A program made the translations under genes and the position numbers. The notes below the pieces were generated by a model that was not told the DNA's origin, ran no database searches, and was given only the letters and a program-made list of their open reading frames with translations. Shown one piece after another: positions 9,244 to 64,000 of a stretch of DNA of 64,000 nucleotides. How positions within the stretch are numbered: position 1 is the stretch's first letter; the number at the start of each line of letters is the position of its first letter. The DNA is from Escherichia phage CL1. The DNA lies in sequence record OK040806; one strand, 5' to 3'.

Positions 9244-11388
9244 ATGAACAAAGTACAGATTATTAAAAAGAATGGCTCACTTGAAGAACCTGATATCAAA
9301 AAAGTTTTAGCAGCAGTAACTAAGTCAGCTAACAGGGTTGGGTATAAAGAACTTCCACCAGATGTTACCCAAGCTCTTGAGTCAGCATTTATGAGGATTC
9401 TGGTAAAGTCCACTAAGCAGAATAATTTGCTCATCTCGGTAAATGATATTCACAGTATTGTTGAGGGTGCTTTGGCAGAAGTTAATCACGAGATTTATGA
9501 GTCCTACTCAACATATAGAAATTACCGTAAAGAGGTTGCTCAAAATTGGGACGAGCTTTACCAAAAGACTAGAGATACACTCTTCTTAGGTGACCGTGAA
9601 AATGCTAACTTTGACAGCAGTTTAATTTCTACAAAAGGTTCAATTATTCGTGGTTATCTGACTAAAGAAATCTTTAAACAGTACCATTTAACACCAGAGG
9701 AACTTGAAGCCATTGAAAAAGGGTTTATCTACATCCATGACTTAAGAGACCTAATTTTTGGTGGTATCAACTGTTGCCTGTTCGACATTGGTAAAGTACT
9801 GAAAGGTGGCTTTGAAATGTCTGGAATTGAATACTGTGAACCGAAGTCTGTGCTGTCAGCCTTACAGGTTATTGGTGATGTAGTTCTTTCAGCAACTGCA
9901 CAGCAATTTGGTGGCTTTACTTTAGCAGAGATTGACAAGGTACTTGTACCGTATGCTAAAAAATCTTTAGTGTACCACTCAGAGAAAGCTGAAGAGTACG
10001 GAATACCTAAAGAGCAACACTATAATTACGTAATGGAGCAATTACAGAATGAGTTAACACAAGGTTTCCAATCTCTTGAAATGAAACTTAACACTGTTCC
10101 TTGCAGTCGCGGTGATTTTGCATTTACTACTCTGACATTTGGCCTGTTGGAACCAGATATGCACAATGAAGATAACCGTCTTCAGTTTATGATTGCCAAT
10201 ACAATCCTTAATGTAAGGATGAACGGGCAAGGAAAAAGCAAAAAACCTGTTGTGTTTCCTAAACTTGTGTATATCTATGAAGAGACAAGACATAAACTTG
10301 ATGTGTGCCAAGCAAGGTTGTTTGAAAAAGCTATTGAGTGTTGCTCTAAAGCGATGTATCCAGATTTCTTAAGTGTATCTGGTCATGGTGCTGTAGCAGA
10401 TGCTTTTAAGCGTTCTGGTAAGGTGATTTCACCGATGGGTTGCAGAGCTTTCTTATCTCCATATCTTAACGAGAATGGGGAAGAGTTCTATGTAGGTCGT
10501 GCTAACATTGGTGCTGTATCTTTGAACTTGCCAATGATTTACCAGTATTCTAAAGATAATGGTTTAGATTTCTGGAAAGAGCTTGATAAGTACCTAGAGA
10601 TGATTCGCAGCTTCCACAAGAAACGCTATGAAATGATTGCTAACATGCCAGCAAGCTCTAACCCTCTTGCGTTCACACAAGGTGGTCTGTACAAAGGGAC
10701 TAAGAAGCCTACTGATAAGGTTGGTTGGGATATCGTGAAGTCCTTCACAGCTTCTTTTGGGGTTACTGCGCTTGATGAGTTATCTGTTCTCGCTGAAGGT
10801 AAACGACTTCATGAAGTTGGTAGCTATAGTTTTGCATACGATGTTCTGGCATACATCAACATGAAAACTGAAGAGTTTAAAAATGAAGATGGTTTCTTAT
10901 ATGCTGTCTATGGCACTCCAGCAGAATCACTTTGTGGAACTCAACTAAAACAGTTCAGAGAAATGTTTGGTGTTATCAAAGGTGTTTCTGACAAGGAATA
11001 CTTTACAAATAGTTTCCATATGAATGTTGCAGCAGACATCTCACCATTTGAGAAGCAGGACTTAGAAGAGCCATTCTTCCATATCTGTAGAGGTGGCAGA
11101 ATCCAGTATGTCAGGGTAGCTAACCCAGAAAACTTAACAGCACTTAAGAGTTGTATTACAAGAGGGATGTTGAAAGGTTTTTATCAGGGACTTAACTTTG
11201 ACCTAGCAATTTGTGAGCATTGTGGTAGCAGACCAAAGGCCGATGTTGAAGAATGTGAGGTTTGCCATTCACATGATATCTCTGTGATTAACAGGGTGTG
11301 TGGGTATCTTGGGTGGACTAAGATTAAAGGTGAATCCCGAATGAACGATGCAAAAATTGCTGAGATTCGTGATAGAGTCTCTATGTAA
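9244..11388 (+). CDS. nrdD: anaerobic ribonucleoside-triphosphate reductase
   Basis: C-terminal glycyl-radical motif NRVCGYLGW and CEHCG..CEVCH zinc ribbon; 714 aa. Confidence 0.95.
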   Translation: MNKVQIIKKNGSLEEPDIKKVLAAVTKSANRVGYKELPPDVTQALESAFMRILVKSTKQNNLLISVNDIHSIVEGALAEVNHEIYESYSTYRNYRKEVAQNWDELYQKTRDTLFLGDRENANFDSSLISTKGSIIRGYLTKEIFKQYHLTPEELEAIEKGFIYIHDLRDLIFGGINCCLFDIGKVLKGGFEMSGIEYCEPKSVLSALQVIGDVVLSATAQQFGGFTLAEIDKVLVPYAKKSLVYHSEKAEEYGIPKEQHYNYVMEQLQNELTQGFQSLEMKLNTVPCSRGDFAFTTLTFGLLEPDMHNEDNRLQFMIANTILNVRMNGQGKSKKPVVFPKLVYIYEETRHKLDVCQARLFEKAIECCSKAMYPDFLSVSGHGAVADAFKRSGKVISPMGCRAFLSPYLNENGEEFYVGRANIGAVSLNLPMIYQYSKDNGLDFWKELDKYLEMIRSFHKKRYEMIANMPASSNPLAFTQGGLYKGTKKPTDKVGWDIVKSFTASFGVTALDELSVLAEGKRLHEVGSYSFAYDVLAYINMKTEEFKNEDGFLYAVYGTPAESLCGTQLKQFREMFGVIKGVSDKEYFTNSFHMNVAADISPFEKQDLEEPFFHICRGGRIQYVRVANPENLTALKSCITRGMLKGFYQGLNFDLAICEHCGSRPKADVEECEVCHSHDISVINRVCGYLGWTKIKGESRMNDAKIAEIRDRVSM

Positions 11389-12194: not shown

Positions 12195-12681
12195 ATGAAT
12201 TACATGGAGATTAGGCCATTTGACACAGCTAATGGTGAAGGGGTTCGTGTAAGCCTCTTTGTAGCTGGTTGTAAGCATCACTGTGAAGGCTGCTTTAACA
12301 GGGAGTCTTGGAAGTTTAATGCTGGTAAAGAGTTTACTTATGCAAACCTCTACGGCATCATTAAGTTAATGGATGATGAGGCCATCAGTGGGTTGTCAAT
12401 ACTCGGTGGAGAGCCTCTGGATGACAGAAATATTCAAGAGGTTACCAACATATGCAAACGTATTAAAACAGTTTACCCAGAAAAGTCTATATGGCTCTGG
12501 ACAGGTTTTCAGTTACACGAAAAAAATTCACTTAGATGTGATGAAATATGTTGACGTGGTGATTGATGGTAAGTATGATTCATCTAAACCAACAGTTAAA
12601 CCTTATCGTGGCTCTGATAACCAAAACCTCTGGAGAAAAGAGTATGGGTGGCAAGGTGATTGTCAATGGCGAGCAGAATAA
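12195..12681 (+). CDS. nrdG: anaerobic RNR activating protein (radical SAM), interrupted by apparent +1 frameshift in an A7 run
   Basis: CKHHCEGC radical-SAM cluster motif and ILGGEP in frame 1 (12195-12554); NrdG-like C-terminus VDVVIDGKYD..RGSDNQNLW in frame 2 (to 12681); frames join if A-run 12520-12526 has one fewer A. Confidence 0.8.
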
Positions 12682-12763
12682 ATTTAAACATTGGTGGCAA
12701 TGTTGTTGGTGTCACTGAAGAAGAACCTAAAACATTTTGTGAAAAGATTGAGAGAGATATGAA

Positions 12764-13021
12764 ATGGGAATCTGGAACAGTTTTAAATCAAAAGTAAAAG
12801 CAGCACTGGCATCACTAGGTATGCTCACTGGTGTTGATGTGACTCATCTCATGCAGCACTTCAAGATGGATGAGAAACTAGCTAATGAGATTATGAAAAG
12901 TATCTATGTAGGTCGTGGTAAAGGTGGTAAAAAACAAGCACATCGACCAACTGGTGCAGCAGCTATTAAACGGGCAGCTAAGAAAGCTCGTAACCGTAAA
13001 CGTAACAAGAAGGCTAAATAA
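12764..13021 (+). CDS. hypothetical protein with basic C-terminus
   Basis: 85 aa ending KKARNRKRNKKAK. Confidence 0.5.
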   Translation: MGIWNSFKSKVKAALASLGMLTGVDVTHLMQHFKMDEKLANEIMKSIYVGRGKGGKKQAHRPTGAAAIKRAAKKARNRKRNKKAK

Positions 13022-17827: not shown

Positions 17828-20194
17828 ATGCGCATGGTAAACGACCACGCAGAAGTGATTAAGAGTTCAACTTCTTTAGAGACGTCTCAAGCACAGATTA
17901 CAATGACACCTGAAATGTTCAGCCTTTTGAGTTCTGGTGTATACACCTTTAAAGAAAGGGCAGTGATTCGTGAGCTGTCATGTAACGCAGTAGATGCTCA
18001 GAAAGAAGCTGGAAAAGAGAACATCCCGTTCCATGTGCATTTGCCTACTCGTTTTGAGCCTTACTTTGAAGTTCGTGATTTTGGAACTGGATTAACTCAT
18101 GATAAAGTTATGAGTTTGTACCTAAACTACGGGGCTTCTACGAAGAATGACTCTAATGACTACATTGGTGCAATGGGTATCGGCTCGAAATCCCCATTTG
18201 CAATTGCTCAGTCATTCACAGTGTCCAGTTATGTTGATGGTGTTGTTAATAAGTACTCTGTTTATCTTGAGAATGGTATCCCTCAAGTGACTAAACTTAC
18301 TACTAACCCAACAAAAGAGCCAAATGGCTTAGCTGTACGTGTAGCAGTTGCTGACCATCGTATCTCAAAGTTCTTTGAAGAAGCTGGTCACGTATACTCA
18401 TACTTTGCTGTAAAACCGGAAAGTAATATCGAGTATGACGATGTACTAGCAGATATGAACGTCATTGCCCGTGAAGAAGGTGTTTACGATGCTATGATTC
18501 ATAAGCAAAGCTGGCGTTCTGGTGCTAATAGGACAGAGTTTAATGTGGTGATGGGTAACATTGCATACCCTGTTAATATGGAAGCATTACTTGGTGATGA
18601 TTTCTTCAAAGTCTTGCCAGAATTTTTCCGTAGGAGCGTAGACCTTGTAAACATCTACATGCCTATTGGTTCAGTTGCTATTGCAGCTTCTCGTGAAGCA
18701 TTGCAGATGAATGACACGACAAAAAATGTTATCATTGAGGCTACTAAAAAGATAACCGAAGCAATTACAAAGGATGTTATCAAGAAAGTTAATAACCAAC
18801 CTACACTCATGGATGCTGCACAGGCTTATGCTGAGTTACGTTTGAACTCACGAGAGATGTTTAATGCTGTGTGTCCAAAGCTAGAGTGGGGTGGTGTTAA
18901 GCTTGATTCTCTGGAAGAAGAATTACTAAACATTCGTCGTGGAATTATCTACGCAGAAGACGGCTCAGTCATTTATGAACGTGACGGTAAAGGTAATATT
19001 AAGGTTGATAGGAACGGGAACAATATCCCTAAAGTAGATTATCTTTATGACCCAGTTGCTTATGTCAAGTTCAACTCTTTAGAGAGTAAGATTCGTGCAA
19101 CATCGCTTTCCTACACTCAAGAGGCAAGTATGTTCAATATCTTTGGCGCAATGCGTAAAAGCCAAATTGAACAGTTTTTGTTTGTTATCAATGACCGTCG
19201 CAATAAAAATGGTACTGAGAAGACTGTAGGACGCAATCAAATCTTGCGTGGTGCATGTCGAGACTATGCCAGTGAGTCAAATCTGTTTCACAGATACAAC
19301 GGTATTGTCTTTGTATTCTCTACTGAGAAAGAGTTAGACGACTTAATCAATCTGCACAAACTTGATAAAAGCTTGTTAAAGATTGTGAAGATGTCTGATA
19401 AGGAACACCATTATCAGCGTAAAGAAGCTGTAAGAGGTGTTGTAAAACTCTGGAAAGCTGTTCCAGCAGAAGGTGTAGCTTCATACACAGAGGTGTCAGA
19501 AGACTTAGACACAATTGAAGAGCCTCAACTTTATATCAAGGCAGTAGGTGATACTGTTGATGGTGAATGTTTTTGCTCATCTCCAGATGATGTAGCTAAG
19601 TCAGTTGCCAATGTCATTGGAAAGACAGTCTATGTTTTCCGAAAAGCAAATTGGAAAAAGATACCAGAAGACTGGATTGAAGTAGATGAGAAGCTCTTGA
19701 ACGACAGCTTAACTGATGTTCACTGGATTAACCATAACAGATATATGACACGTATCTACATGAATGGTGTCCTTGACCTCACAAGCAGTTGGATTATTGC
19801 CAGAAACTTTACGTTCAATAACAAGAAGATTTCTCGTGGCTATTGCTATTCACGAGACACAAACAAAACTATCTTCTTAGAAGGTAATGAAGATGCTGTT
19901 GAGGCAATGTTTGGTAAAATCCAATACGTTGCTGCACCGTTTGCATACACTTACACTATTAGCGTGTTGCAAGATTTGAAAAGTTGTCTTGATAATGATA
20001 CAAAGCTTTACAAGAAAATTAAGAAAGCTGGTGACCGCATGGTCATTAAGGTGACAAACTACCTTTCAAAAAGAAAACAAGAAAACTTCTTGCTTTCTCA
20101 TTTAGATTGGAATAAAGTGTCACCCATCGAAGTGAGTAAGTTCTTAGGCTTTGATGTGAAGTGTGTTCCAGAAGGGACTACAATTTACGATTAA
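17828..20194 (+). CDS. rIIA: rIIA-like protein (GHKL ATPase fold)
   Basis: GHKL motifs IRELSCNAVDAQ, VRDFGTGL, GAMGIGSKSPFA; order and motifs match T4 rIIA as recalled. Confidence 0.85.
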   Translation: MRMVNDHAEVIKSSTSLETSQAQITMTPEMFSLLSSGVYTFKERAVIRELSCNAVDAQKEAGKENIPFHVHLPTRFEPYFEVRDFGTGLTHDKVMSLYLNYGASTKNDSNDYIGAMGIGSKSPFAIAQSFTVSSYVDGVVNKYSVYLENGIPQVTKLTTNPTKEPNGLAVRVAVADHRISKFFEEAGHVYSYFAVKPESNIEYDDVLADMNVIAREEGVYDAMIHKQSWRSGANRTEFNVVMGNIAYPVNMEALLGDDFFKVLPEFFRRSVDLVNIYMPIGSVAIAASREALQMNDTTKNVIIEATKKITEAITKDVIKKVNNQPTLMDAAQAYAELRLNSREMFNAVCPKLEWGGVKLDSLEEELLNIRRGIIYAEDGSVIYERDGKGNIKVDRNGNNIPKVDYLYDPVAYVKFNSLESKIRATSLSYTQEASMFNIFGAMRKSQIEQFLFVINDRRNKNGTEKTVGRNQILRGACRDYASESNLFHRYNGIVFVFSTEKELDDLINLHKLDKSLLKIVKMSDKEHHYQRKEAVRGVVKLWKAVPAEGVASYTEVSEDLDTIEEPQLYIKAVGDTVDGECFCSSPDDVAKSVANVIGKTVYVFRKANWKKIPEDWIEVDEKLLNDSLTDVHWINHNRYMTRIYMNGVLDLTSSWIIARNFTFNNKKISRGYCYSRDTNKTIFLEGNEDAVEAMFGKIQYVAAPFAYTYTISVLQDLKSCLDNDTKLYKKIKKAGDRMVIKVTNYLSKRKQENFLLSHLDWNKVSPIEVSKFLGFDVKCVPEGTTIYD

Positions 20195-21398: not shown

Positions 21399-21425
21399 AA
21401 GGCTGCTTCGGCGGCCTTTTTTTAT
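21399..21425 (+). terminator. intrinsic terminator
   Basis: AGGCTGC-TTCG-GCGGCCT hairpin then TTTTTTT. Confidence 0.6.
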
Positions 21426-26948: not shown

Positions 26949-27036
26949 AGTACTTTACAGGGGGCTTAAAAGCTGATATCTTAAGCCCCAGATAAAGAGC
27001 TTTACTAAATTAACCCTTAAACTAGGAGATTCAAAA
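26949..27036 (+). repeat. type A intergenic cassette (copy 1, variant)
   Basis: GGGGCTTAA..TTAAGCCCC hairpin + AGATAAAGAGCTTTAC + CTAGGAGATTCAAAA leader. Confidence 0.6.
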
Positions 27037-27417
27037 ATGGCTTATCGTGCACCGAAATTCATCAACAAAGACAACTTCCGCAACGCACTGGAGAAGTCAC
27101 TTGATGAAAAATTTAACGGCAAATTGATTGTTGTTCACGCATTCAATTTTAAGTATGATATTAACGGGAATAAAATCAACCATTACACGGCAACCATGTT
27201 AGATGGTACGCTATCAAGTGAAAAAGCCGTACTGAATGCACTTGCAGGACGTGGTAAAAACCTGATAAGATGCGATAAGAGACGTTATCAGGGTGGCGCA
27301 TATGGTTATGATGATGCTGTTTATCATCTTGAAAATATGGGCTATTCAGTGGAAAAAGCTGGAGTGTCTCAAATAATCGGCAGTGATGGTTATGTAACAA
27401 TCTTCAAAATTAACTAA
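27037..27417 (+). CDS. array ORF 2, hypothetical (126 aa)
   Basis: Conserved leader AAACTAGGAGATTCAAAAATG. Confidence 0.55.
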   Translation: MAYRAPKFINKDNFRNALEKSLDEKFNGKLIVVHAFNFKYDINGNKINHYTATMLDGTLSSEKAVLNALAGRGKNLIRCDKRRYQGGAYGYDDAVYHLENMGYSVEKAGVSQIIGSDGYVTIFKIN

Positions 27418-27505
27418 TAAAGTACTTTACAAGGGGCTTATAGTTCGATAAAGTAAGCCCCAGATAAAGAGCTTTACCACTAAATCCTAAATTGGAGATT
27501 CAAAA
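27418..27505 (+). repeat. type A intergenic cassette (copy 2)
   Basis: TTTACA-N17-TAAAGT promoter-like element overlapping hairpin GGGGCTTATAGTTCGATAAAGTAAGCCCC, then AGATAAAGAGCTTTAC and conserved leader. Confidence 0.6.
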
Positions 27506-27763
27506 ATGGCTATCATCAAAAACGTTGTAATTACTGCAAAGACTCGTGATGACGCTCGCATCATGGCGAAAAAGTTAGGCGGGAAAGTGGTTGACAACGG
27601 AAAACAATCTGCTGTAAGATGGGGCGTGAAGGCTGATAAAAAGTTAACCTTAAAACGCAGTTCAAATAACCTCTTTAAAGGTGTAAAATCACTCGGTAAA
27701 GTGAACGTGTTTACTAAACAAGGTTACAAAATGCACTTATCATTAACTGGCAATTTAATCTGA
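27506..27763 (+). CDS. array ORF 3, hypothetical basic protein (85 aa)
   Basis: Conserved leader; Lys-rich. Confidence 0.55.
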   Translation: MAIIKNVVITAKTRDDARIMAKKLGGKVVDNGKQSAVRWGVKADKKLTLKRSSNNLFKGVKSLGKVNVFTKQGYKMHLSLTGNLI

Positions 27764-27852
27764 TAAAGTACTTTACAAGGGGCTTATAGTTCGATAAAGT
27801 AAGCCCCAGATAAAGAGCTTTACTAACTAAATCCTAAACTGGAGATTCTAAA
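27764..27852 (+). repeat. type A intergenic cassette (copy 3)
   Basis: Near-identical to copy 2. Confidence 0.6.
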
Positions 27853-28365
27853 ATGAAAACTGTAGACGCTACCTTTGAAGTTGTAAAAGAAAAATTCACC
27901 ATTATTTATGAAGCTGTCAATTGCTTTGAAGCAAGCCATAATCTTGATAATTGGAAGTTTACAGATGACCATCAAGGCGGCGTGACGATTAAAAATCCTA
28001 ACTGTCAGAGTAATGAATTTAAATATGCAATCCCTTTGCATTACAGCCTTAAGCAGCTTTCAAGTGACTATGCAAAACAAGGCCGTGAGAATCCATCGAA
28101 AGAGGCTTACACGAGCTTACAGAAAGAACTAGAAAGGGATTTAGAGGCTTCAGAGTATAACATTGCCGCGAAAGTTGTAGATGCAAACGGTAGCACGGTT
28201 TTAGAGAGTTTTTATATTGGTTATGCTTTCGATTGGTGCTACAGTGACGGCGATGATTTAGATGACAGACTAAAAGAGGAAGTGAACAACGCAGACGCAG
28301 AATCTGAAGTATTAGAACGCTTGGAAGCATTAAAAGATTCAGTGATGAATATCTTTAAGAACTAA
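27853..28365 (+). CDS. array ORF 4, hypothetical acidic protein (170 aa)
   Basis: Conserved leader; acidic C-terminal region DGDDLDDRLKEEVNNADAESE. Confidence 0.55.
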   Translation: MKTVDATFEVVKEKFTIIYEAVNCFEASHNLDNWKFTDDHQGGVTIKNPNCQSNEFKYAIPLHYSLKQLSSDYAKQGRENPSKEAYTSLQKELERDLEASEYNIAAKVVDANGSTVLESFYIGYAFDWCYSDGDDLDDRLKEEVNNADAESEVLERLEALKDSVMNIFKN

Positions 28366-28453
28366 ATAGATTTCTTTACACGGGGCTAACAAGCGGATAT
28401 GATAGCCCCAGATAAAGAGCTTTACTACTAAATCCTAAACTGGAGACTCTAAA
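28366..28453 (+). repeat. type A intergenic cassette (copy 4, variant loop)
   Basis: GGGGCTA..TAGCCCC hairpin + AGATAAAGAGCTTTAC. Confidence 0.55.
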
Positions 28454-28750
28454 ATGAAATTATCGAATAAAGTTCGTGAAAACCTTAGTAAATTACTCAA
28501 CAAAATTGATTTTATCGAGACATCAAGAAATAATCATGATGTTATGGAATGGTTGCACGGCAAAATAAAAGGCCGTCGCGTAGTGATTTGCTTATGGAAT
28601 AGTTGCAGGGAGTATAAAAAGCCTGTATTGCAAATTAATGTTTATGATGATACTTTTAAAAGTCCTGTAAAGTCTAAAAGCGATTTATTAGAATCCTATG
28701 AGATAACTGTAAATGGCAAAGTATCACGTAAAGAGGAAACACCATGTTAA
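28454..28750 (+). CDS. array ORF 5, hypothetical (98 aa)
   Basis: Conserved leader. Confidence 0.55.
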   Translation: MKLSNKVRENLSKLLNKIDFIETSRNNHDVMEWLHGKIKGRRVVICLWNSCREYKKPVLQINVYDDTFKSPVKSKSDLLESYEITVNGKVSRKEETPC

Positions 28751-29076
28751 TGACTGGTATCACTGCAATCATTGCCATTTTCGCGCTATATAAGGCATAT
28801 AAAGCCTATAATCTAGCAAATAAGGCAATCACACAGCAAGTTAGTAATAACCTTGTAGAGAGCTTTCTAGGGCGTTTAAGTGATGAGCAAATAAAGCGGC
28901 TAGAGATGAGCTTCAGATATAAAGCGAAAACCTATCAGATAAGTGACATCTTCAAAGAGGATTTTCAGCTTGTCGATGATTATAACTCACTGATAAATGC
29001 TTTAAATATCAGTGACTTAAAAGATTATTACGCTGTAATTGTCCAAGAACTGAACAAACGAAAACAAAACTGTTGA
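28744..29076 (+). CDS. array ORF 6, membrane protein (110 aa)
   Basis: ATGTTAA overlap with ORF 5 stop; N-terminal TM helix GITAIIAIFALY. Confidence 0.5.
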   Translation: MLMTGITAIIAIFALYKAYKAYNLANKAITQQVSNNLVESFLGRLSDEQIKRLEMSFRYKAKTYQISDIFKEDFQLVDDYNSLINALNISDLKDYYAVIVQELNKRKQNC

Positions 29077-29162
29077 CACTGATTTTTAGATAACCTAAAT
29101 TACTAATCAACGGGAGGGATGACCTCCCACTAAACAAAGTCCTTAAACTAGGAGATTCAAAA
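29073..29162 (+). repeat. type B cassette (copy 1): promoter + GGGAGG..CCTCCC leader hairpin
   Basis: TTGACA 29073-29078, N17, TAAATT 29096-29101; leader AATCAACGGGAGGGATGACCTCCCAC; then AAAGTCCTTAAACTAGGAGATTCAAAAATG. Confidence 0.6.
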
Positions 29163-29435
29163 ATGTATACTACTAATAACGGTCGTACTCTAAATGTAAC
29201 TTTGCGCCACTATGTTAACGGCGTGATGCACTTTGAAGATTTACAAGCTGAACAACATATCTTAGATTGGCAACTTGCAGGACTACAAAAAACTGCTACA
29301 GGATACGGGAAAAAGATTCCAACTAGTTGGAAAGTATACTATGAAGGGCGTTTGCGCAGAATTTATCAAGATGTATACAGCAATAGCGCAACAAGTTACA
29401 TCATGGTAAAAGGTAAAAAATTACACTTAGTATAA
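29163..29435 (+). CDS. array ORF 7, hypothetical (90 aa)
   Basis: Conserved leader. Confidence 0.55.
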   Translation: MYTTNNGRTLNVTLRHYVNGVMHFEDLQAEQHILDWQLAGLQKTATGYGKKIPTSWKVYYEGRLRRIYQDVYSNSATSYIMVKGKKLHLV

Positions 29436-29521
29436 AGTACTTTACAAGGGGCTTATAGTTCGATAGAGTAAGCCCCAGATAAAGAGCTTTACTACTCAAT
29501 CCTAAATTGGAGAACTTAAAA
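29436..29521 (+). repeat. type A intergenic cassette (copy 5)
   Basis: Same hairpin and AGATAAAGAGCTTTAC element. Confidence 0.6.
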
Positions 29522-29926
29522 ATGGCTATTAATAACCGTGAGTTATCAATCTTAAAAGCACGTTTGACCGTTAACCGGATTAATGTTATTACGTCATCAG
29601 CACCGGACGAAACATTACACAACATTATTGGGAAGATTCAAAGTGTTATCTTAGACGTTGAAAGCGTAAAAAACTCATTGGCTGACGTTGCAGCAGGTAT
29701 CACGCTAGACGGTGCACAATATGAAATGGCTGACATGTTAGGCAAATCAAAGGTAATGAATAAAGAGCTTGATTTAAAAATGTTCCGTTTTGCCGTGAAA
29801 GTGTGGCTATCTGTCGAGTATGACGCAAATTTTGCAATCGCTGACTTTTTCGCAACATGGTTGCAACGTAATTTAACAAATTATGATTTTCGTGATATCT
29901 GTGACGCAATTTACGCAGAACTCTAA
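29522..29926 (+). CDS. array ORF 8, hypothetical (134 aa)
   Basis: ATG 29522 follows conserved leader; track start 29507 lies in the leader. Confidence 0.5.
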   Translation: MAINNRELSILKARLTVNRINVITSSAPDETLHNIIGKIQSVILDVESVKNSLADVAAGITLDGAQYEMADMLGKSKVMNKELDLKMFRFAVKVWLSVEYDANFAIADFFATWLQRNLTNYDFRDICDAIYAEL

Positions 29927-29935
29927 AAAATTTTA

Positions 29936-30025
29936 TTGACACTGATTTTTAAAACAAGTAAATTACTAATCAACGGGAGGGATGACCTCCCCACTAAGTA
30001 AAGTCCTTAAACTAGGAGATTCAAA
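29936..30025 (+). repeat. type B cassette (copy 2)
   Basis: TTGACA 29936-29941, TAAATT 29959-29964, GGGAGGGATGACCTCCCC hairpin. Confidence 0.6.
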
Positions 30026-30226
30026 ATGGCTATTATCAACGGTTTAAACATTGAAACTACTCATATCAAAGATATCAAAGTTGGCGATGTAGTCCTTTCC
30101 CACGGCGTAGAAAAAACTGTCACTGCAAAGGATATTAAAGAGGATTCTTTCATGGGTAGGACTCTCTTCGGTGATTCTTATTGCTTAGGTTATCTTGCAG
30201 TTTTAAAAGTTGTCAAAAATAACTGA
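30026..30226 (+). CDS. array ORF 9, hypothetical (66 aa)
   Basis: Conserved leader. Confidence 0.5.
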   Translation: MAIINGLNIETTHIKDIKVGDVVLSHGVEKTVTAKDIKEDSFMGRTLFGDSYCLGYLAVLKVVKNN

Positions 30227-30321
30227 TAAAGTACTTTACAAGGGGCTTATAGTTCGATAAAGTAAGCCCCAGATAAAGAGCTTTACCACTAAATCAAGTC
30301 CTTAAACTAGGAGATTCAAAA
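30227..30321 (+). repeat. type A intergenic cassette (copy 6)
   Basis: Same hairpin and leader. Confidence 0.6.
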
Positions 30322-30885
30322 ATGAAATGCTATCACGGAACTACACTCAAAAACTTTGTAAACCTGCTGAATGGTGGCGATAAGCCTGAAGGTATCTGGA
30401 ACTGTTCCTACATGGACGATTGTTTCTATGTTTACCCAATGAATAAGGTTATCAAAATGGGATGTCTGGAAGATGAAGAAGATTCTTACATCCGTGAACG
30501 CTGCATTCAAAGTGCCTTAGAGTCGGGGCTTATTACGGCTGCTTTCCAAATGGAAACGCAGGACGTGATTGTTATTGAAATGGATATCCCAGAGGAAGAA
30601 CTAGAGGACGATTATTCTTGTGACAACATGAGCGAAATTGCCAGCTTTACCGGATACTTTGATAAAAATTGGATTGTTAGCATCCACTCAACGAAATTTA
30701 GTGCGATGTATGCACCTTTCTTTGTACCTGATACGAAAAACCGCAACTTGGGATATGTTGACGATGATTTGTTGAGTATTGCAAAAATTGTACAGAATAG
30801 CGGTGATAGTTCCGTGTTTTGTGACCTACTGGATAAAATCACGGAAAACCTCACAGAACGCAATTTAAAGGACTTTTTAGGATAA
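30322..30885 (+). CDS. array ORF 10, hypothetical acidic protein (187 aa)
   Basis: Conserved leader; acidic stretch DIPEEELEDDYSCD. Confidence 0.55.
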   Translation: MKCYHGTTLKNFVNLLNGGDKPEGIWNCSYMDDCFYVYPMNKVIKMGCLEDEEDSYIRERCIQSALESGLITAAFQMETQDVIVIEMDIPEEELEDDYSCDNMSEIASFTGYFDKNWIVSIHSTKFSAMYAPFFVPDTKNRNLGYVDDDLLSIAKIVQNSGDSSVFCDLLDKITENLTERNLKDFLG

Positions 30886-30948
30886 GCAGTACAAAGACAC
30901 CAACTTTTAACTTAAGGCCCACACAGGGCCATTTAGAGGGCTTCAAAC

Positions 30949-31182
30949 ATGCTTACAACCGTTTATCTTATCCTTTCTATTTGTAATGGTCATTCATGTG
31001 ATTTTAAAGGGCTTGAGGAGTTTACAGGAAGTAAAGAAAATGCCGTTCAGGTCTGTCAGATAGCAAGACAAGACTACCCCGCCAGTGATGATATACAATG
31101 TTACTTTAAGACAGAAGATGAAGAGGGTATCTATTTCGATAGTGTAGACGGGCAATATGAAATTATCATTGAAAAAGACTAG
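30949..31182 (+). CDS. array ORF 11, small protein with hydrophobic N-terminus (possible secreted/lipoprotein)
   Basis: MLTTVYLILSICNG; no standard cassette upstream, GGCCCACACAGGGCC hairpin instead. Confidence 0.4.
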   Translation: MLTTVYLILSICNGHSCDFKGLEEFTGSKENAVQVCQIARQDYPASDDIQCYFKTEDEEGIYFDSVDGQYEIIIEKD

Positions 31183-31271
31183 ACAAGCCTGATAAAAGTC
31201 TGTAAATTGTCAATCAACGGGAGGCGATAACCTCCCAACTAAACAAAGTCCTTAAACTAGGAGATTCAAAA
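31183..31271 (+). repeat. type B cassette (copy 3, variant)
   Basis: TAAATT + GGGAGGCGATAACCTCCC hairpin + conserved leader. Confidence 0.5.
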
Positions 31272-31613
31272 ATGGCTTATGTAACCGTAATTACCAATAA
31301 AGAAGATTCATCTTGGTCAACTCAAGTAAGCGATAAGATGTCACCTATGCAGTGCCTAAAATACTTTGAGCAATGGAACAAAGGCGAGGATACCAGCCCC
31401 TTTCAAGTGATGCAGATTATCCATACAGATAACGAAGGGAATAAAACTGTTTTGAATAGTGAGTACTATGCAACCAGATTCGAAACGAGAAGTAAAGCAA
31501 TGAAGCTCTTACGTGAATCCGGTTATTCTCATATTGCCGCGCTAATCTGGGATGACCTGCTAAAAAATCAGCGTATCAGCTACGTAAAACCTGAAAAAAT
31601 ATTCATCAGTTAA
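31272..31613 (+). CDS. array ORF 12, hypothetical (113 aa)
   Basis: Conserved leader. Confidence 0.55.
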   Translation: MAYVTVITNKEDSSWSTQVSDKMSPMQCLKYFEQWNKGEDTSPFQVMQIIHTDNEGNKTVLNSEYYATRFETRSKAMKLLRESGYSHIAALIWDDLLKNQRISYVKPEKIFIS

Positions 31614-31739
31614 TCAATAACTTACAAAAAACTTTTAAAAAAGTGTTGACAATACCCCTTGACATTGGTAACTTTGTTCGAGGGGGTTTATCTAAAAGGG
31701 ATTAACTTAAAAGATTCTTTATAGATAAACTTAAAAAAT

Positions 31740-31836
31740 TGCTTGCAATCAGATATCAAAACAAGTAAATTACTAATCAACGGTGAGGGAATGAACTTCC
31801 TCACTAAATAAAGTCCTTAAACTAGGAGATTCAAAA
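31740..31836 (+). repeat. type B cassette (copy 4, variant)
   Basis: TAAATTACTAATCAACGG + GAGGGAATGAACTTCCTC hairpin + leader; preceded by extra TTGACA element near 31647. Confidence 0.5.
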
Positions 31837-32367
31837 ATGAACAAATTTCAAGCTATCAACTACATTCGCTCAAATGCTGTAATGTCTAAGCCTGTTAAAG
31901 ATACCTATGAATTTCGCTGCAATGGGGTACACTTTGCAACCATTACCAAATCAGAAAACGGGGTTTATTACATTCATCGCCGTAATGTTTATACTGTTGT
32001 AGTCTCTCACTTTATGAAAGCTGTAGCGGAATTATTACCGTTATTCTTAGAGATTTACTTGGATGAGTGTAAAAACGTTCATAGCCACGTTAAAAACCTT
32101 TTAAATAGCTATAAAATGGCTTATGAACGTTCAATCAAGTCCTTAAACAAGTTCTATAAAGCCCCTGTAAATACTGTTTCAATGGCCTACGCTGCAAATG
32201 GTGAAAGAGTAAGACTATCCGATGTGGAAGATATCGAGCTTTACGACCATCGCCCTAACGGTTACTCTCAGACCCTCGGTGAAGGTTTAACGTTCAATAT
32301 CAAGAACTTAGAAAAAACTTTAAAAGATATTGAAAAAGATATTGACGAGACAATCAAAAATCTGTAA
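31837..32367 (+). CDS. array ORF 13, hypothetical (176 aa)
   Basis: Conserved leader. Confidence 0.55.
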   Translation: MNKFQAINYIRSNAVMSKPVKDTYEFRCNGVHFATITKSENGVYYIHRRNVYTVVVSHFMKAVAELLPLFLEIYLDECKNVHSHVKNLLNSYKMAYERSIKSLNKFYKAPVNTVSMAYAANGERVRLSDVEDIELYDHRPNGYSQTLGEGLTFNIKNLEKTLKDIEKDIDETIKNL

Positions 32368-32432
32368 ATTATCAATCAACGGGAGGGATAACCTCCCTAC
32401 TAAGCAAAGTCCTTAAACTAGGAGTTATCAAG
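32368..32432 (+). repeat. type B cassette (copy 5)
   Basis: TAAATT + GGGAGGGATAACCTCCC hairpin + leader. Confidence 0.55.
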
Positions 32433-32705
32433 ATGGAACACGTCGAACTGACCACACTTTTACAAATTGCAACCGACAAAGAGGATGTAGCATTATTCCA
32501 CCGCATCGAAAGTGATTTATTCAATGGTGAAATCATTAAAGAATCTTACGAAGTTGTCGGATTCAAAGACGGTAAAGCGTTCGGATTCTTTGACCTCGAC
32601 AAAGGCAAAGCGGTTACAAAATATGATGTTTTATCTTGTGAGATTCTTACAAAATACAACGAAAAAAAGGCTTGCAACATACGCCAACATGCAGTAAATT
32701 ACTAA
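32433..32705 (+). CDS. array ORF 14, hypothetical (90 aa)
   Basis: Leader variant CTAGGAGTTATCAAGATG. Confidence 0.5.
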   Translation: MEHVELTTLLQIATDKEDVALFHRIESDLFNGEIIKESYEVVGFKDGKAFGFFDLDKGKAVTKYDVLSCEILTKYNEKKACNIRQHAVNY

Positions 32706-32762
32706 TCAACGGGAGGGATAACCTCCCTACTGAATAAAGTCCTTAAACTAGGAGATTCTAAA
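32706..32762 (+). repeat. type B cassette (copy 6)
   Basis: TAAATT + GGGAGGGATAACCTCCC hairpin + leader. Confidence 0.55.
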
Positions 32763-33011
32763 ATGGCAACTATCCGCGCAACTATCAATGCTTATGGCTG
32801 TTATACTCTGGACGTTAAATTTGATATTGGTGGAACTGATGAATGCTTTTCATTAGTGAAGACAGTTATCAAGCAAGTTATCCCAGATTATAACCCTACT
32901 GATGACTTCTGGAAAGATGCTGTAAAAGAGGCATTAAACGATGAGCATCACTATCATTACTGGGGTGACTTGATTGTCTCCCTGTACTACAATAAACAAG
33001 GTTACAACTAA
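32763..33011 (+). CDS. array ORF 15, hypothetical (82 aa)
   Basis: Conserved leader. Confidence 0.55.
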   Translation: MATIRATINAYGCYTLDVKFDIGGTDECFSLVKTVIKQVIPDYNPTDDFWKDAVKEALNDEHHYHYWGDLIVSLYYNKQGYN

Positions 33012-55416: not shown

Positions 55417-56522
55417 ATGTTGACTAATTCTGAAAAAAGCAGATTTTTCCTTGCTGACCTGACTGGTGAAGTCCAGTCTATCCCAAATACTTATGGGTAT
55501 ATTTCCAACTTAGGTCTGTTCCGTTCAGCACCAATCACCCAAACTACTTTCCTTATGGACTTGACTGATTGGGATGTTAGCTTGCTTGATGCGGTAGACC
55601 GTGATAGCCGTAAAGCAGAGACTAGCGCACCTGAGCGTGTTCGTCAAATCAGCTTCCCAATGATGTACTTCAAAGAAGTTGAAAGCATCACTCCTGATGA
55701 AATTCAGGGTGTACGTCAGCCAGGCACTGCAAACGAACTGACTACTGAAGCAGTAGTACGTGCTAAGAAGCTGATGAAGATTCGTACCAAGTTCGATATT
55801 ACTCGTGAGTTCCTGTTTATGCAAGCTCTGAAGGGTAAAGTTGTTGATGCTCGTGGTACGCTGTATGCTGACCTGTACAAGCAGTTCGATGTTGAGAAGA
55901 AGACTATTTACTTCGACCTTGATAACCCTAATGCGGATATCGACGCTTCTATCGAAGAACTGCGTATGCACATGGAAGACGAAGCTAAAACTGGTACTGT
56001 AATCAACGGTGAAGAAATTCACGTAGTTGTTGACCGTGTATTCTTCAGCAAACTGGTTAAGCATCCTAAGATTCGTGATGCTTACCTTGCACAGCAGACT
56101 CCGCTGGCTTGGCAACAGATTACTGGTTCTCTGAGAACTGGTGGTACTGACGGCGTTCAGGCTCACATGAACACTTTCTACTACGGTGGTGTTAAGTTTG
56201 TCCAGTACAACGGCAAGTTCAAAGACAAGCGTGGTAAGGTTCACACTCTGGTGAGCATTGACAGCGTAGCGGACACTGTTGGTGTTGGTCATGCTTTCCC
56301 TAACGTTTCTATGCTGGGTGAAGCTAACAACATCTTCGAAGTGGCATATGGCCCATGTCCTAAGATGGGTTACGCAAATACACTTGGTCAGGAACTGTAC
56401 GTATTCGAATACGAAAAGACCGTGACGAAGGTATTGACTTCGAAGCTCACTCTTACATGCTGCCATACTGTACTCGTCCTCAGTTGCTGGTAGATGTTCG
56501 CGCTGACGCTCAAGGTGGCTGA
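55417..56522 (+). CDS. major capsid protein, with apparent -1 frameshift near the 3' end
   Basis: Strong host-like codon bias; track frame ends 56493 with implausible tail TVTKVLTSKLTLTCCHTVLVLSCW; -1 frame from about 56418 reads DRDEGIDFEAHSYMLPYCTRPQLLVDVRADAQGG to stop 56520-56522. Confidence 0.7.
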
Positions 56523-60333: not shown

Positions 60334-60974
60334 ATGAAAACAGAATCTAAAGTAATCAATGGTAAGAAAGTGAATATCGTTCTGCTTGGGGCAAGAGATG
60401 GTATTAAGATGTCTATGAAGTTGGGTAAAATTGTTGTTCCAACCTTTGCACAGATGCTATCAAGTCTGACTGATAAAGATAAGAAAGAAGCTCCAATGGT
60501 TCCATTTAAAGAACTTGTTGAGGCTTGTTTTGACAGAATTGAAGAAATTAACCTAGAAGAAATGGCTACCATACTATTTCAAGGGGCAACTGTTGATGAC
60601 TTCCCACTTAATATTGATACATACTTCCAAGCAAACTATGGTGAATTTATTGATTACTTAGCATTTGCGCTGGAGGCAAACTTCGGAAGTTTTTTTCGAA
60701 GCAAGCATTTTCAAAAGCCTAACTTCTCAGTAAACATGGGTAATACTCTACAGACACCACTAACTGATGCTGCTGTAGAGGCAACCTATGAAGAAGCAGA
60801 CGAGATGAAATTTGTGCTTGCTATTTATGGTATGGAAGGGTGTAAAGAAACACTTGACCAACTCTTTGCTATGACATTCTCTGATTTATTATCATTGAGA
60901 CAATTTCTTGAAATTCAGAGGTCGTATAAAGAGGAAATTGCTTACAACGAACTTAGAAGAGCAGGAAAAATGTA

Positions 60975-60975
<1 letters not shown>
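60334..60975 (+). CDS. putative tail assembly chaperone
   Basis: 213 aa immediately upstream of tape measure with overlapping stop/start; assignment by position. Confidence 0.35.

Positions 60976-64000
<3,025 letters not shown>

Follow-up and report, generated by a model that had tools for sequence, protein, structure and literature searches.

The nrdD and nrdG genes of bacteriophage T4 are dispensable in aerated culture. In T4 and its close relatives NrdG is encoded in one frame and carries the cysteine motif CX3CX2C, as do the proteins described by TIGR02491, the NCBIfam model for NrdG, the activating enzyme of the anaerobic (class III) ribonucleotide reductase. Closer to the DNA analysed here is the gene of phage Felix O1, whose NrdG (NP_945003.1, ORF121), like that of its close relatives, is positioned after nrdD and an open reading frame (ORF) of 131 residues. 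In Felix O1, VpaE1_ev035, vB_EcoM_E9 (E9) and SSBS18_WS_10_728 (SSBS18) the gene is intact and 486 nucleotides (nt) long, and it contains a run of six adenines (A6) that is read as GAA AAA ATT and encodes Glu-Lys-Ile. As a radical-SAM activase, NrdG would be expected to install the glycyl radical on the phage NrdD, and so to allow dNTPs to be made without oxygen.

The window, by which we mean the whole stretch of 64,000 nt analysed here, comes from Escherichia phage CL1 (OK040806). Its nrdG region is 100% identical to that of Escherichia phage C600M2 (OK040807.1), a Felixounavirus, and nrdG is positioned in it as in Felix O1. With one A removed the gene resembles the 486-nt genes of the four phages named above, but as written it has A7 in place of A6 at 12520-12526 and its frame is split. 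The features of the locus are as follows.

9244-11388, + strand: nrdD, class III ribonucleotide reductase; intact, 714 residues, with the C-terminal glycyl-radical motif RVCGYLG and, on an identical product, the Pfam domains ATP-cone and NRDD
12195-12554, + strand: 5' part of nrdG as written; 119 residues, stop codon TGA at 12552-12554, radical-SAM motif CX3CX2C (Cys26, Cys30 and Cys33)
12520-12526, + strand: A7 homopolymer, flanked by G and T as read from the sequence; site of the single-base insertion
12526-12681, + strand: 3' part of nrdG in the +1 frame; IHLDVMKYVDVVIDGKYD...RGSDNQNLW...QWRAE, stop codon at 12679-12681

The nrdG gene in two reading frames

The split had been described in a first-pass annotation as a +1 frameshift at an A7 homopolymer with one A too many, and every coordinate and motif given there was confirmed. 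The 119-residue ORF contains AGCKHHCEGC, which holds the CX3CX2C motif, together with SILGGEP and IWLWTGF, and its last nine residues (NSLRCDEIC) are out-of-frame junk. The ORF in the +1 frame, which runs to 12681, holds VDVVIDGKYD and RGSDNQNLW. In the window as written no single uninterrupted frame covers the whole NrdG domain. Deleting one A does give a continuous protein, as had also been claimed: the resulting ORF of 486 nt encodes 161 residues containing ...FQLHEKIHLDVMKYVDVVIDG..., matches NrdG from end to end, and yields ...FQLHEKIHLDVMK... as the junction peptide of the full-length protein. The 119-residue protein is present in identical form as UCJ01413.1 (C600M2) and UCJ01269.1 (CL1), and in both GenBank records, OK040807 and OK040806, nrdG is entered as two coding sequences (CDSs), an 'organic radical activating enzyme' and a 'hypothetical protein'.

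The repaired 161-residue protein scores 197.7 bits against TIGR02491, an equivalog model with a curated cutoff of 126.1 bits, and the match covers profile positions 1-153 of 154. The 119-residue ORF as written stops at position 112 of the 154 (positions 1-112 only, 151.2 bits), and the 3' part contributes the remaining 46.5 bits. Pfam searches returned Fer4_12 (E = 2.5e-43) and Radical_SAM (E = 4.7e-07), and the sole match in a sequence search of the PDB was the N-terminal cluster region of pyruvate formate-lyase activase. Queried with tblastn, a 62-residue segment across the junction matched 1,838 NrdG-bearing phages, with the T4-like phages in a single frame; T4 and its close relatives are 54-56% identical to the repaired protein over these residues. 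The partner of an NrdG is encoded in the same locus, in the form of nrdD with its glycyl-radical motif.

The 51 C-terminal residues that follow the junction are 100% identical to those of Felix O1, VpaE1_ev035 and SSBS18, and the corresponding codons differ from those of the same three phages at 2-7 nucleotides, all of them synonymous. E9 has one change within this segment. Over its whole length the repaired NrdG shows 1-2 amino acid differences from E9, VpaE1_ev035 and SSBS18, and 15 from Felix O1. At the level of sequence, the nearly full-length match of the repaired protein to TIGR02491 and the identity of the 51 post-junction residues to Felix O1 indicate that the split is more than a chance arrangement of ORFs. 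With its C-terminal frame undecayed and altered by synonymous differences only, the frameshift must be either extremely recent or not real. A long-standing pseudogene was considered and rejected on the same ground, as the downstream frame of nrdG differs from that of relatives only synonymously.

On the 3' side of nrdG (~12675-12800) the window is without some 220 bp that are found in Felix O1, E9 and many others. In the Felix O1-type form ORF122 overlaps the 3' end of nrdG, and the window keeps a remnant ORF of 43-45 residues. The short form is found also in VpaE1_ev035, ULIM3, ULIM8 and others, and from the sequences compared the absence looks like a natural indel polymorphism.

Run lengths in relatives, sister assemblies and control genes

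A comparison with the nrdG of related phages had been suggested in the first-pass annotation, and was made with a 90-base query across the A-run. Taking 60 rows spread down the ranking together with the best 60 rows gave ~100 distinct Felixounavirus records. Among these listed matches all but C600M2 and EC6 are one base shorter than the window at the run, which leaves the ~100 relatives with A6 and an unbroken gene; EC6 is two bases shorter (A5). Apart from C600M2, A7 was found in none of the ~100 listed relatives, among them those from collections that are mostly not flow-sequenced. Exact-pattern counts in IMG/VR gave seven contigs with A6, one with A5 and none with A7. The EC6 genome combines 454 and Illumina sequencing, the former being a flow chemistry too.

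C600M2 and CL1 were both sequenced on the Ion Torrent S5, a flow-based platform, to depths of 6,746x and 37x, respectively; SPAdes and Unicycler, run with default settings, produced both assemblies, and the two genomes are 99.92% identical (PMC8759396). The main errors of Ion Torrent sequencing are over-calls and under-calls of homopolymers, and reproducible 'high-frequency indel' errors are mistaken for polymorphisms, with frameshifts in assemblies as a result (PMC3623719).

Over 64 kb, the differences between the window and C600M2 amount to nine indels of a single base and a 210-bp patch of substitutions. All nine indels relative to OK040807.1 (at 4766, 21417, 26283, 33061, 38847, 40825, 42467, 44073 and 60690) fall in homopolymers, and across 49.7 kb there are no substitutions. 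Those at 40825, 42467 and 60690 alter ORFs in the window; in C600M2 the 4766 indel affects where an ORF starts. Real divergence would yield substitutions first.

The commonest discordance in this S5 data set is from six bases to seven. The window contains seven 7-mer homopolymers, and each of the six with a counterpart to compare has six bases in E9 as well as in SSBS18 (6/6), while its 6-mers agree with those of E9 and SSBS18 in 40/44 and 52/54 cases, respectively. Two 7-mers are private to C600M2, and both are 6-mers in the window, E9 and SSBS18. The Logan re-assembly of SRR15840093, which apparently derives from the same reads as the window, has T7 at 21417, as in the window, and it has A7 in rIIA (~18721-18726; locus L022 10311) where the window and C600M2 both have A6; this A7 call splits rIIA into ORFs of 303 and 494 residues. 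In this data set, runs of six bases and runs of seven are not reliably told apart. Homopolymers elsewhere in the window served as controls for the nrdG run.

21417-21423, + strand: T7 run, intergenic and terminator-like; T7 also in Logan SRR15840093, T6 in C600M2, E9 and SSBS18
32662-32668, + strand: A7 run in a small hypothetical gene, close to its 3' end; A7 in C600M2, A6 in E9 and SSBS18
40825-40829, - strand: run of five T, in the window only, near the 5' end of a gene whose start is shifted; four T in C600M2, E9 and SSBS18
42467-42473, + strand: A7 run, in the window only; A6 in C600M2, E9 and SSBS18; the ORF changes from 123 to 145 residues
56414-56417, + strand: A4 run in the major capsid gene (55417-56493); A5 in 59/60 sampled relatives
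60690-60696, + strand: T7 run at the apparent -1 slippery site of the tail-assembly chaperone; T6 (G TTT TTT C) in C600M2, E9 and SSBS18

At the capsid site the last 22 conserved residues are out of frame, and the addition of one A gives a C-terminus nearly identical to that of E9. The comparison that gave A5 in 59/60 relatives reached out to Erwinia and Yersinia phages; A4 occurs also in C600M2 and in the Salmonella phages Si3 and GE_vB_BS. In relatives the tail-assembly chaperone is a 132-residue ORF that ends shortly past the T-run, with the -1 frame running for ~80 codons more, and judging by this layout the run appears to be a -1 programmed-frameshift site. The extra T in the window fuses both chaperone frames into one ORF of 213 residues (60334-60975). 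The A7 run at 32662-32668 alters the C-terminus of its small gene, which has 90 residues as written and 87 if repaired. Frameshifts like that in nrdG are found as well in the capsid and tail-chaperone genes, without which a phage would not be viable.

Origin of the seventh adenine

We consider it probable that the extra A is a systematic homopolymer miscall of the Ion Torrent S5 in the consensus of both CL1 and C600M2. An over-call of A6 as A7 would have entered both sister consensuses, and the physical phage would carry A6 and an ordinary, intact nrdG encoding 161 residues. This explanation is favoured by the sequencing platform, by the homopolymer-only differences between the sister assemblies, by the 7-mers of the window that are 6-mers in E9 and SSBS18, by the rIIA call in the re-assembly, by the frameshifts in essential genes, by the A6 run of ~100 relatives and by the undecayed C-terminal frame next to an intact nrdD, and from these we infer that the nrdG site is itself among the miscalls. 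The first-pass annotation had left three readings side by side, and of these the sequencing or assembly indel is the one now preferred; a genuine pseudogene retains a small share of the probability, and slippage-dependent expression found no support, the frameshift not being conserved. The gene is a known one in a known phage genus, and the defect is probably not in the phage itself.

The recurrence of A7 in three assemblies from two read sets (C600M2 at 6,746x, CL1 at 37x and Logan SRR15840093) counts against an artefact to the extent that it excludes random error, and the error must then be site-specific and systematic. It also fits the main rival, a real and very recent DNA polymerase slippage that lengthened the A6 run by one base before CL1 and C600M2 diverged, an event we regard as unlikely. 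NrdG would then be inactive, with the last 27% of its domain lost, and dNTPs would come from the aerobic NrdAB or from the host. With CL1 and C600M2 all but clonal, both could plausibly have inherited one real mutation, and since nrdG is dispensable with aeration such a mutation would be tolerated in the laboratory; the A-run is moreover a plausible hot spot for slippage, EC6 having the opposite indel. Phage enrichment and plaque purification were indeed aerobic, at 220 rpm (PMC8759396), which relaxes selection on nrdG. The number of shared sites also speaks against an artefact: if errors were independent, at ~10% and ~7% per 6-mer over roughly 58 six-mers, ~0.4 shared 6-to-7 sites would be expected, and two were seen (nrdG and 32662). 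So does the recurrence of the capsid A4 run in Si3 and GE_vB_BS, as does the finding that in PGM data long homopolymers are chiefly under-called, not over-called (Bragg et al. 2013, PMC3623719), yet over-calls from six to seven are the commonest here. Against a real mutation, nrdD is intact and no decay is seen 3' of the nrdG junction, A7 is absent from the listed relatives (again including those from collections mostly not flow-sequenced), and an equally 'reproducible' homopolymer frameshift lies in the essential capsid gene of both assemblies. Agreement between C600M2 and CL1 was considered as proof of a real A7 and was rejected: since the two also share the capsid frameshift, their agreement does not prove a call to be real. 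In a variant of the same idea the nrdG A-run would be a true on/off hot spot for anaerobic dNTP synthesis, with A5 (EC6), A6 (most phages) and A7 (CL1 and C600M2) as real alleles. Null alleles would then be tolerated during aerobic propagation and would revert by slippage in anoxic hosts. This we judge very unlikely.

Two further explanations take the A7 run as real and nrdG as functional. Slippage-dependent expression, whether programmed or leaky, would proceed through a +1 shift of tRNA-Lys on A AAA AAA T or through RNA polymerase dropping one A, and seems to us extremely improbable. The run would let tRNA-Lys re-pair perfectly in the +1 frame (GAA AAA AAT TCA), and the downstream frame of nrdG is wholly preserved. 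The frameshifted layout, however, is not conserved, given A6 and one frame in the ~100 listed relatives and the in-frame NrdGs of T4-like phages. Past the run the A site holds AAT, a codon that is not rare and not a stop, and the sequence upstream of the run contains no Shine-Dalgarno-like stimulator, so that the slippery motif is accompanied by neither of these stimulatory elements. Appreciable slippage by bacterial RNA polymerase takes runs of about 8-9 or more, and the seven-A run is shorter than efficient slippage usually needs. The other explanation, a two-piece NrdG in which the 119-residue N-terminal fragment and a separately started C-terminal fragment of 46 residues form an active enzyme, is barely conceivable. 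An ATG at 12541 does open the C-terminal frame 11 nt ahead of the upstream stop, and the CDS is annotated as C600M2_68, but no recognisable ribosome-binding site precedes 12541. The split costs the residues IHLDV and appends the nine junk residues, and the layout is found in no relative but EC6, the other flow-sequenced genome.

Further features, significance and known systems

Within a Dit-like or baseplate gene (63203-64000), codons 82-151 of the window (63446-63655) carry 53 substitutions relative to C600M2, all synonymous, with no change in the protein. The stop codon of this gene, which is the last CDS of CL1 (UCJ01346.1), closes the window. Throughout these 70 codons one fixed codon is used for each amino acid (L=CTG, S=AGC, R=CGC, T=ACC, G=GGC, A=GCG, V=GTG, I=ATT, Q=CAG and so on), with four TCN-to-AGC serine switches relative to C600M2. 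The GC content is 45%, against 34% in C600M2, and among 253 Felixounavirus records no DNA match is better than 82%. From its codon usage the segment looks back-translated, codon-optimised or edited, rather than naturally diverged.

In another part of the window (27000-32800) copies of an intergenic module (...ACTAATCAACGGGAGGGATGACCTCCC...TAAACTAGGAGATTCAAAATG) lie between small ORFs. This module cross-matches many times within E9 and SSBS18, and many of the small indels relative to relatives fall inside it. It is probably a repeated early-region cassette of promoter, terminator and ribosome-binding site.

The significance of the nrdG split is mainly one of annotation quality in the records OK040807 and OK040806, where several other frameshifts at homopolymers probably exist, affecting the capsid gene, the tail chaperone and small ORFs. 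Scans for split genes in flow-sequenced phage genomes will keep yielding such cases, and comparing run lengths with a sister assembly, a re-assembly and relatives separates artefacts from real pseudogenes and recoding sites. If A7 were true, the lineage would be unable to activate its own NrdD, a modest handicap in the anoxic gut and one with relevance for the therapeutic use of Felix O1-like phages.

Among known systems, recoding sites such as the +1 site of prfB, the -1 site of dnaX and the transcriptional slippage sites of IS elements and of endosymbiont poly(A) tracts resemble nrdG of the window in having a homopolymeric slippery sequence at the frame junction. They differ in that the nrdG layout is unconserved and comes without a stimulatory stop, rare codon or Shine-Dalgarno-like element, and in that its run is shorter than those at which RNA polymerase is known to slip efficiently. 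The nrdG of EC6 (JX560968; AFU62434.1 and AFU62435.1) likewise has a single-base indel in the same run and is annotated as two CDSs, but the indel is the opposite one (A5, a -1 deletion) in an independent lineage. The homopolymer errors known from Ion Torrent and 454 sequencing share with this locus both the single-base homopolymer change that produces a frameshift in an assembly and the presence of other discrepancies confined to homopolymers. The one departure from the pattern described by Bragg et al. 2013 (PMC3623719) is the direction of the error: long runs were under-called there, whereas the nrdG run, like most of the discordant 6-mers, would be an over-call.
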